DNA of 64,000 nucleotides from Escherichia coli (GTDB lineage Bacteria > Pseudomonadota > Gammaproteobacteria > Enterobacterales > Enterobacteriaceae), in assembly GCF_044324875.1 (NCBI RefSeq), contig NZ_CP172185.1. One strand, 5' to 3'. The notes under the pieces were generated by a model. It searched no databases, had not been told where the DNA came from, and saw only the letters and a program-made list of their open reading frames with translations. Shown here piece after piece: positions 36,411 to 36,489 of the stretch. A program made the translations under genes and the position numbers. The number at the start of each line of letters is the position of its first letter. Position 1 is the first letter of the stretch.

Positions 36411-36489
36411 AATACAAGGCCCGATAAGCTTGCGCATCGGGCAATGGCTACGGATGCGACTACAACATCGCATCCGGTCAGTCCGCAAC

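Follow-up and report, generated by a model that had tools for sequence, protein, structure and literature searches.

The 64-kb stretch of Escherichia coli DNA analysed here (the window) leads from colanic-acid genes through an O-antigen cluster, headed by a JUMPstart element, to gnd, ugd and wzzB and on to the his operon. Above-threshold Rfam matches follow in the order algC RNA (13007-13056), JUMPstart (22958-22996), histidine operon leader (43570-43693) and STnc240 (46432-46506). The mechanically called open reading frame of wzzB (34014-35027, plus strand) comprises 337 aa from an upstream ATG, compared to a 981-nt RefSeq CDS of 326 aa in strain AST215; this mismatch is one of start-codon choice and no real difference.

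The genes wzzB (ending at 35027, plus strand) and hisIE (ending at 36490, minus strand) converge with their 3' ends. A copy of the insertion sequence IS621 is located between them, so placed that no gene is interrupted, and it is the only copy in the window. It is read on the minus strand and has the following parts, the limits of the left end being those of the published definition (PMC11208160):

35139-36416, minus strand: body of the IS621 element, 1278 bp, or 1280 bp if one CT core is counted
36417-36418, minus strand: left-junction CT core (plus strand AG), read directly
35137-35138, minus strand: right-junction CT core (plus strand AG), read directly
36419-36425, minus strand: ATCGGGC, left half of the target and 3' arm of the REP palindrome (36419-36442)
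35132-35136, minus strand: right target half ACTAT, in which pairing to the right target guide is limited to AC (target positions 10-11)
36225-36416, minus strand: left non-coding end (LE), 192 nt, starting with TGTAT (right donor half) and containing the -10 box TATTAT
35139-35243, minus strand: right non-coding end (RE), 105 nt, ending with ACAGTAT (left donor half) and containing the -35 box TTGCAG
35244-36224, minus strand: IS621 recombinase (transposase) gene, 326 aa, from PDB, Pfam and NCBIfam matches
36225-36402, minus strand: bridge RNA coding region, 178 nt by the limits of the published 177-nt RNA, from alignment to copy L007
36345-36353, minus strand: left target guide (LTG) ATCGGGCCU, pairing 9/9 with the bottom strand at target positions 1-9
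36320-36328, minus strand: right target guide (RTG) UGCGUAG at 36322-36328, followed by the handshake guide AU, from computed pairing
36272-36279, minus strand: left donor guide (LDG) ACAGUAUC, pairing 8/8 with the bottom strand at donor positions 1-8
36235-36244, minus strand: right donor guide (RDG) UGCAAG within UUUGCAAGGU, followed by the handshake guide GU, from computed pairing

Junctions and target site

Script extraction of plus-strand positions 36412-36425 yields ATACAAGGCCCGAT, the reverse complement of which is ATCGGGC-CT-TGTAT, exactly as an earlier note on this DNA had described the left junction. Positions 35131-35145 read AATAGTAGATACTGT (reverse complement ACAGTAT-CT-ACTATT). 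For the right junction the earlier note gave AACAGTAT|CT|ACTATTCG, and this string is indeed present; its coordinates were misplaced by a base or two, the string spanning about 35129-35146. In the orientation of the element the two junctions are ...GCAAGCTTATCGGGC|CT|TGTATTATCC... (left) and ...CCATAACAGTAT|CT|ACTATTCGC... (right). The string ACAGTATCT occurs once in the window, at the right end. With CT on both sides, the boundary is fixed from the sequence only to within the 2-bp core; the base-pair-precise boundaries claimed before are correct, albeit from sequence alone only to within that core.

Elements of the IS110 type are expected to be devoid of terminal inverted repeats, and an inverted-repeat search across 35100-36460 found none at the element tips. 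A sub-terminal inverted repeat (35164-35180 and 36257-36273, 14/17 complementary) links the right end with the donor-binding loop's apical hairpin in LE; it may be due to chance or represent a structural feature of the RE-LE region. The right flank at 35120-35133 (plus strand TGTGCAGAGCGAAT) is complementary in 12 of 14 positions to the bridge RNA's 5' stem (36389-36402), which is probably a coincidence, since this flank is also present in empty sites.

Joining the element ends gives ACAGTATCTTGTAT, i.e., the donor joint ACAGTAT-CT-TGTAT, and the target at this locus is ATCGGGCCTAC. The latter lies within a REP palindrome, gcccgataagcttgcgcatcgggc, at 36419-36442, for which a terminator scan counted a hairpin of 8 pairs, in agreement with the REP-like palindrome previously noticed. 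The only Rfam matches in the flanks near the element are sub-threshold ones to the REP-derived naRNA4, among them one at 36418-36479. Both junction-derived strings are identical to the specificities listed for the wild-type bridge RNA (bridge_RNA_T-WT_D-WT; target loop ATCGGGCCTAC, donor loop ACAGTATCTTGTAT; Durrant et al. 2024, Supplementary Table 2, PMC11208160), and the target and donor given in the earlier note are thus exact. Calling the target the natural one holds insofar as it is the listed wild-type specificity; it is not the typical natural target, since ATCAGGCCTAC is commoner and in fact the commonest among natural IS621 targets (Durrant et al. 2024, PMC11208160). In the BL21(DE3) genome the perfect-match target was reported at only two sites versus 129 ATCAGGCCTAC sites, and REP elements accounted for 144 of the 173 sites (PMC11208160).

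The site in the window conforms to ATC[A/G]GGC-CT-AC in a REP with CT on both sides. As in typical ATCAGGCCTAC REP sites, the 11-nt target is made up of the palindrome's 3' arm followed by CTAC, and insertion is after CT. It differs from these by G instead of A at target position 4, which makes it perfectly complementary to the target-binding loop, and by TAT beyond position 11 instead of the GCA that, adjoining the 11-nt target, permits extra RTG pairing (PMC11208160). The exact target ATCGGGCCTACTATTCG and the hairpin variant of the window copy, CCTTAGGTTTTCAACC, had no match in the part of the supplementary files of Durrant et al. that was covered, an absence that is uninformative.

The window also contains four unoccupied copies of ATCAGGCCTAC (12935-12945, 17442-17452, 17539-17549 and 17635-17645, all on the minus strand), where 0.04 would be expected by chance. 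All four share the orientation of the element and three of them belong to a tandem REP/BIME array, two units of which (17445-17516 and 17542-17612) match naRNA4 above the Rfam threshold.

Recombinase and bridge RNA

The only long minus-strand ORF within the 1278 bp encodes a protein that aligns over its full length with the IS621 transposase of PDB entry 8WT6 (322/326 residues identical, 98.8 %, E=3e-218); IS621 transposase entries matched are 8WT6-8WT9, 9WHX and 9WHY. Four substitutions distinguish it from 8WT6, namely T248, L251, V279 and A319, where the reference has A, M, A and S; the first two are located 7-10 residues from the catalytic S241. All five catalytic residues (D11, E60, D102, D105 and S241) are intact. 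Two Pfam domains were found, PF01548 (DEDD_Tnp_IS110, residues 8-152, E=1.7e-24) and PF02371 (Transposase_20, residues 196-278, E=1.8e-25), and the protein reaches 255.8 bits with the NCBIfam model NF033542 ("IS110 family RNA-guided transposase"), whose cut-off is 140. The element thereby displays what defines the IS110 family: PF01548 with D11/E60/D102/D105, PF02371 with S241, lack of terminal inverted repeats and a long non-coding LE predicted to encode a bridge RNA with separate loops for target and donor.

No Rfam model (Rfam 15) matched the bridge RNA, neither in a search of the region at permissive E-value nor in one of the whole window at gathering thresholds. Assignment of the RNA therefore relies on near-identity to the published sequence and on guide complementarity. 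Copies L002 and L007 have the canonical 177-nt region, which shows no difference from the wild-type bridge RNA as published (Supplementary Table 2, PMC11208160). Compared to this, the region in the window has one additional C and three substitutions, A to T at nt 1, G to A at nt 60 and C to T at nt 65. The guide segments are free of these differences, all of which except that at nt 1 fall into the apical hairpin separating the two target guides in the target-binding loop.

The target-binding loop holds ATCGGGCCT plus TGCGTAG, the donor-binding loop ACAGTATC plus UGCAAG. RTG pairs with the target's top strand, starting at position 8, with CTAC paired and the following TAT mismatched (GCA would pair). 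RDG forms six pairs, one of them a G:T wobble, with the top strand of donor positions 8-13 (CTTGTA). The handshake guide AU is complementary to donor positions 6-7 (AT) and the handshake guide GU, with one wobble pair, to target positions 6-7 (GC); the published handshake guides are A81/U82 and G166/U167, in a numbering of G80/A81/U82 and G165/G166/U167 (PMC11208158). On the basis of these computed pairings, the guides are predicted to specify just the target and donor derived from the junctions.

In published IS621, the -35 box resides in RE and the -10 box in LE, and the bridge RNA is transcribed from the circular form (PMC11208158, PMC11208160). Joining RE, CT and LE of the window copy in silico brings TTGCAG, a 17-nt spacer and TATTAT together, so that, as in these papers, a predicted sigma-70 promoter is reconstituted across the joint; its -35 hexamer matches 3 of 6 consensus positions. 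A consensus promoter scan of the integrated locus detected no sigma-70 promoter, as expected with the two promoter boxes lying at opposite element ends.

RE moreover contains a terminator-like hairpin, ACAGCGCCGTCAGGCGCTGT followed by TTTTTTT (35201-35220 with the T-run extending to 35227, plus strand), in antisense orientation to the transposase gene. This hairpin faces read-through from wzzB; it might protect the element against transcription entering from outside or terminate transcription in both directions.

Empty site and further copies in E. coli

An empty-site query was assembled by joining window positions 34839-35138 to 36419-36718, i.e., by removing the element together with one CT, and compared to all 5,426 complete RefSeq genomes of E. 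coli. The uninterrupted 600-nt wzzB-hisIE site was retrieved at 100 % identity from at least 40 of these genomes, among them that of strain 042, confirming that the joined flanks restore an uninterrupted site, and 4,281 of the 5,426 genomes have at least 80 % of the 600 nt covered in one place. The site of E. coli 042 reads ...CAAGCTTATCGGGCCTACTATTCGCTCTG... with a single CT. On the plus strand the empty site is ...GAATAGTAG|GCCCGAT..., and on the strand of the element ATCGGGCCTAC. Across 25 kb of upstream flank the closest relatives are O17_K12a, EC6868, ST3 and GN05505 (99.3 % identical), the latter three of which possess the exact empty site; the empty-site comparison is close to isogenic. 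A closely related genome with an uninterrupted wzzB-hisIE spacer deviating from ...GAATAGTAGGCCCGAT... was looked for and not found. Chance similarity at the junctions is ruled out by the IS621 copy between them and the verbatim empty site elsewhere; it is also untenable since the 9-mer ATCGGGCCT has but two occurrences in the 64-kb window, the left junction and the LTG in the bridge-RNA region of the element.

The occupied locus has no 100 % match among the 5,426 complete genomes, AST215 coming closest with 99.0 %. Only three of them carry IS621 at this same hisIE-wzzB site, viz. AST215 (L001), A2 (L002) and N96 (L003). In A2, the left end of the copy is canonical and its transposase is frameshifted, whereas the copies of AST215 and N96 have the left end of the window type. 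These different left ends suggest that more than one independent insertion took place in the hisIE-wzzB REP, a perfect-match target next to the O-antigen cluster.

IS621-like DNA is present in 2,244 of the 5,426 genomes, at a median of 5 and up to 28 places per genome. Eight other copies, distributed over five loci (hisIE-wzzB, hycI-ascB, yggR-ruvX, mtr-yhbW and rsmS-mscK), were fetched and their junctions extracted. All eight start with TGTATTATCC (TGTAT), end with CCATAACAGTAT (ACAGTAT) and have CT on both sides; the element ends deduced previously from the window alone thus recur in every other copy inspected. Reconstruction of their targets yielded ATCGGGCCTAC, ATCGGGCCTAT, ATCAGGCCTAC and a variant that has ATCAGCCTAC at its end, with one G fewer before CT. 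This variant was found with the copy of strain SC418 (L008, NZ_LR778147.1, 4326769-4329603; 14-nt string TATCAGCCTACACC), which is interrupted near its right end by a tnpA element of the IS200/IS605 family.

At the DNA level, identity of the element is 99.1-99.8 % with annotated IS621 copies belonging to its own isoform and 97.7-97.8 % with the remaining three that were fetched (A2, N96 and 503025); 97.7-97.8 % is also the value for the canonical-type copies L002 (that of A2) and L007. By usual ISfinder convention, about 98 % amino-acid or 95 % DNA identity denotes the same IS, and the 98.8 % (protein) and 97.7-97.8 % (DNA) observed here place the copy within IS621. No 100 % identical element exists among the 5,426 complete E. 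coli genomes (best 99.8 %). The best match reaches at least 99 % in only 51 records, most records falling into the 95-99 % band (canonical type about 97.7 %). The window copy is a minority isoform.

Interpretation as a bridge-RNA-guided insertion

Taken together, the junctions delimiting 35139-36416 (minus strand) almost certainly are those of an intact insertion of IS621, an IS110-family element with a bridge-RNA-guided recombinase, into a REP cluster of the E. coli wzzB/hisIE intergenic region. The window copy shares with published IS621 (PMC11208160, PMC11208158) the ends, the CT core, all guide and handshake segments, the loop-encoded target ATCGGGCCTAC, insertion into a REP, the -35/-10 promoter split across RE and LE and the lack of terminal inverted repeats. 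It differs from canonical IS621 in a bridge RNA of 178 rather than 177 nt (U for A at nt 1, A60, U65 and the extra C), in a one-core length of 1280 rather than 1279 bp, and in its DNA, which is about 97.7 % identical. The feature is already known, i.e., an element behaving as published, and constitutes no discovery.

Following the published scheme, the element would excise as a double-stranded circle joining its right end (...ACAGTAT), the CT core and its left end (TGTAT...), with the predicted joint ...GCCATAACAGTATCTTGTATTATCC.... This joint would assemble the sigma-70 promoter (TTGCAG, 17 nt, TATTAT) for transcription of a bridge RNA of roughly 177 nt from the left end. The target-binding loop would then pair with both strands of ATCGGGC-CT-AC in the REP, and a recombinase tetramer (DEDD RuvC-like domain plus Ser241) would cut beside the CT cores and exchange strands. 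The product would be an element with CT on each side, which is the arrangement present in the window. These steps rest on published experiments; to them the window copy contributes its junctions, empty site, conserved ends, intact recombinase and guide complementarity, from which we infer that it arrived by this reaction and is at present capable of it.

Since the empty site has one CT and the occupied site two, the flanking dinucleotide has the formal look of a 2-bp target-site duplication, as would result from staggered cutting and repair by DDE transposases, rather than of an exchanged core. Such an origin is very improbable, however, as CT is found at both ends in all nine copies examined and the core is included in all four guide pairings of the bridge RNA. 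Furthermore, cryo-EM demonstrated cleavage after CT on the top strands of donor and target with covalent 5'-phosphoserine intermediates at S241 (Hiraizumi et al. 2024, PMC11208158), and the published donor joint, which as ACAGTATCTTGTAT is also the core of a donor oligonucleotide in a later paper, itself contains one CT. The earlier proposal that CT is the shared core is therefore upheld by the same dinucleotide at both ends of the nine copies and by the published cleavage next to it. That the element is another member of the IS110 family, such as an ISCro4-like or IS622-like orthologue to which the target and donor rules of IS621 do not apply, is hardly conceivable. The ISCro4 transposase (PDB 9T56), like engineered bridge recombinase orthologues, indeed belongs to the same family with the same domain architecture and is highly similar (E=1.6e-190), and the DNA is only about 97.7 % identical to canonical-type IS621 copies. 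Nevertheless, the protein is 98.8 % identical to IS621 and scores 726 bits with it versus 635 with ISCro4, RefSeq labels equivalent copies as "IS110-like element IS621 family transposase", and guides, ends and core are identical to those published. The element accordingly is an IS621 isoform and no ISCro4-type orthologue.

A different question is whether the copy has become a fixed, inactive relic with genuine junctions, having lost its mobility through T248, L251, V279 and A319 or through the altered apical hairpin of the target-binding loop. This is improbable. The proximity of two substitutions to S241, the hairpin separating LTG from RTG with its two substitutions and 1-nt insertion, the lack of a 100 % identical second copy in the window or the 5,426 complete genomes and the frameshifted transposase of A2, one of the three other genomes occupied at hisIE-wzzB, could all be taken to point in this direction. 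Against it stand the full-length ORF, all five catalytic residues, all guides and both ends, which are intact, and the hairpin changes keep pairing possible (e.g., A60 opposite T, where the canonical G is opposite T). In addition, same-isoform copies (99.3-99.8 % identical) reside at several different loci in other genomes, demonstrating that the isoform has moved.

With the window copy thus viewed as an intact IS621 insertion, its base-precise boundaries are of little import beyond annotation, and the known mechanism is neither challenged nor extended. Junction-based reasoning from sequence, on the other hand, proved trustworthy. There is a small chance that the natural isoform, with its 178-nt RNA, remodelled hairpin and T248/L251, could differ measurably from laboratory IS621 in activity or specificity, and these differences could interest bridge-recombinase engineers as natural variants. 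The locus also provides a clean natural example of the bridge-RNA rules, in which occupied site, empty site, guides and donor joint agree.
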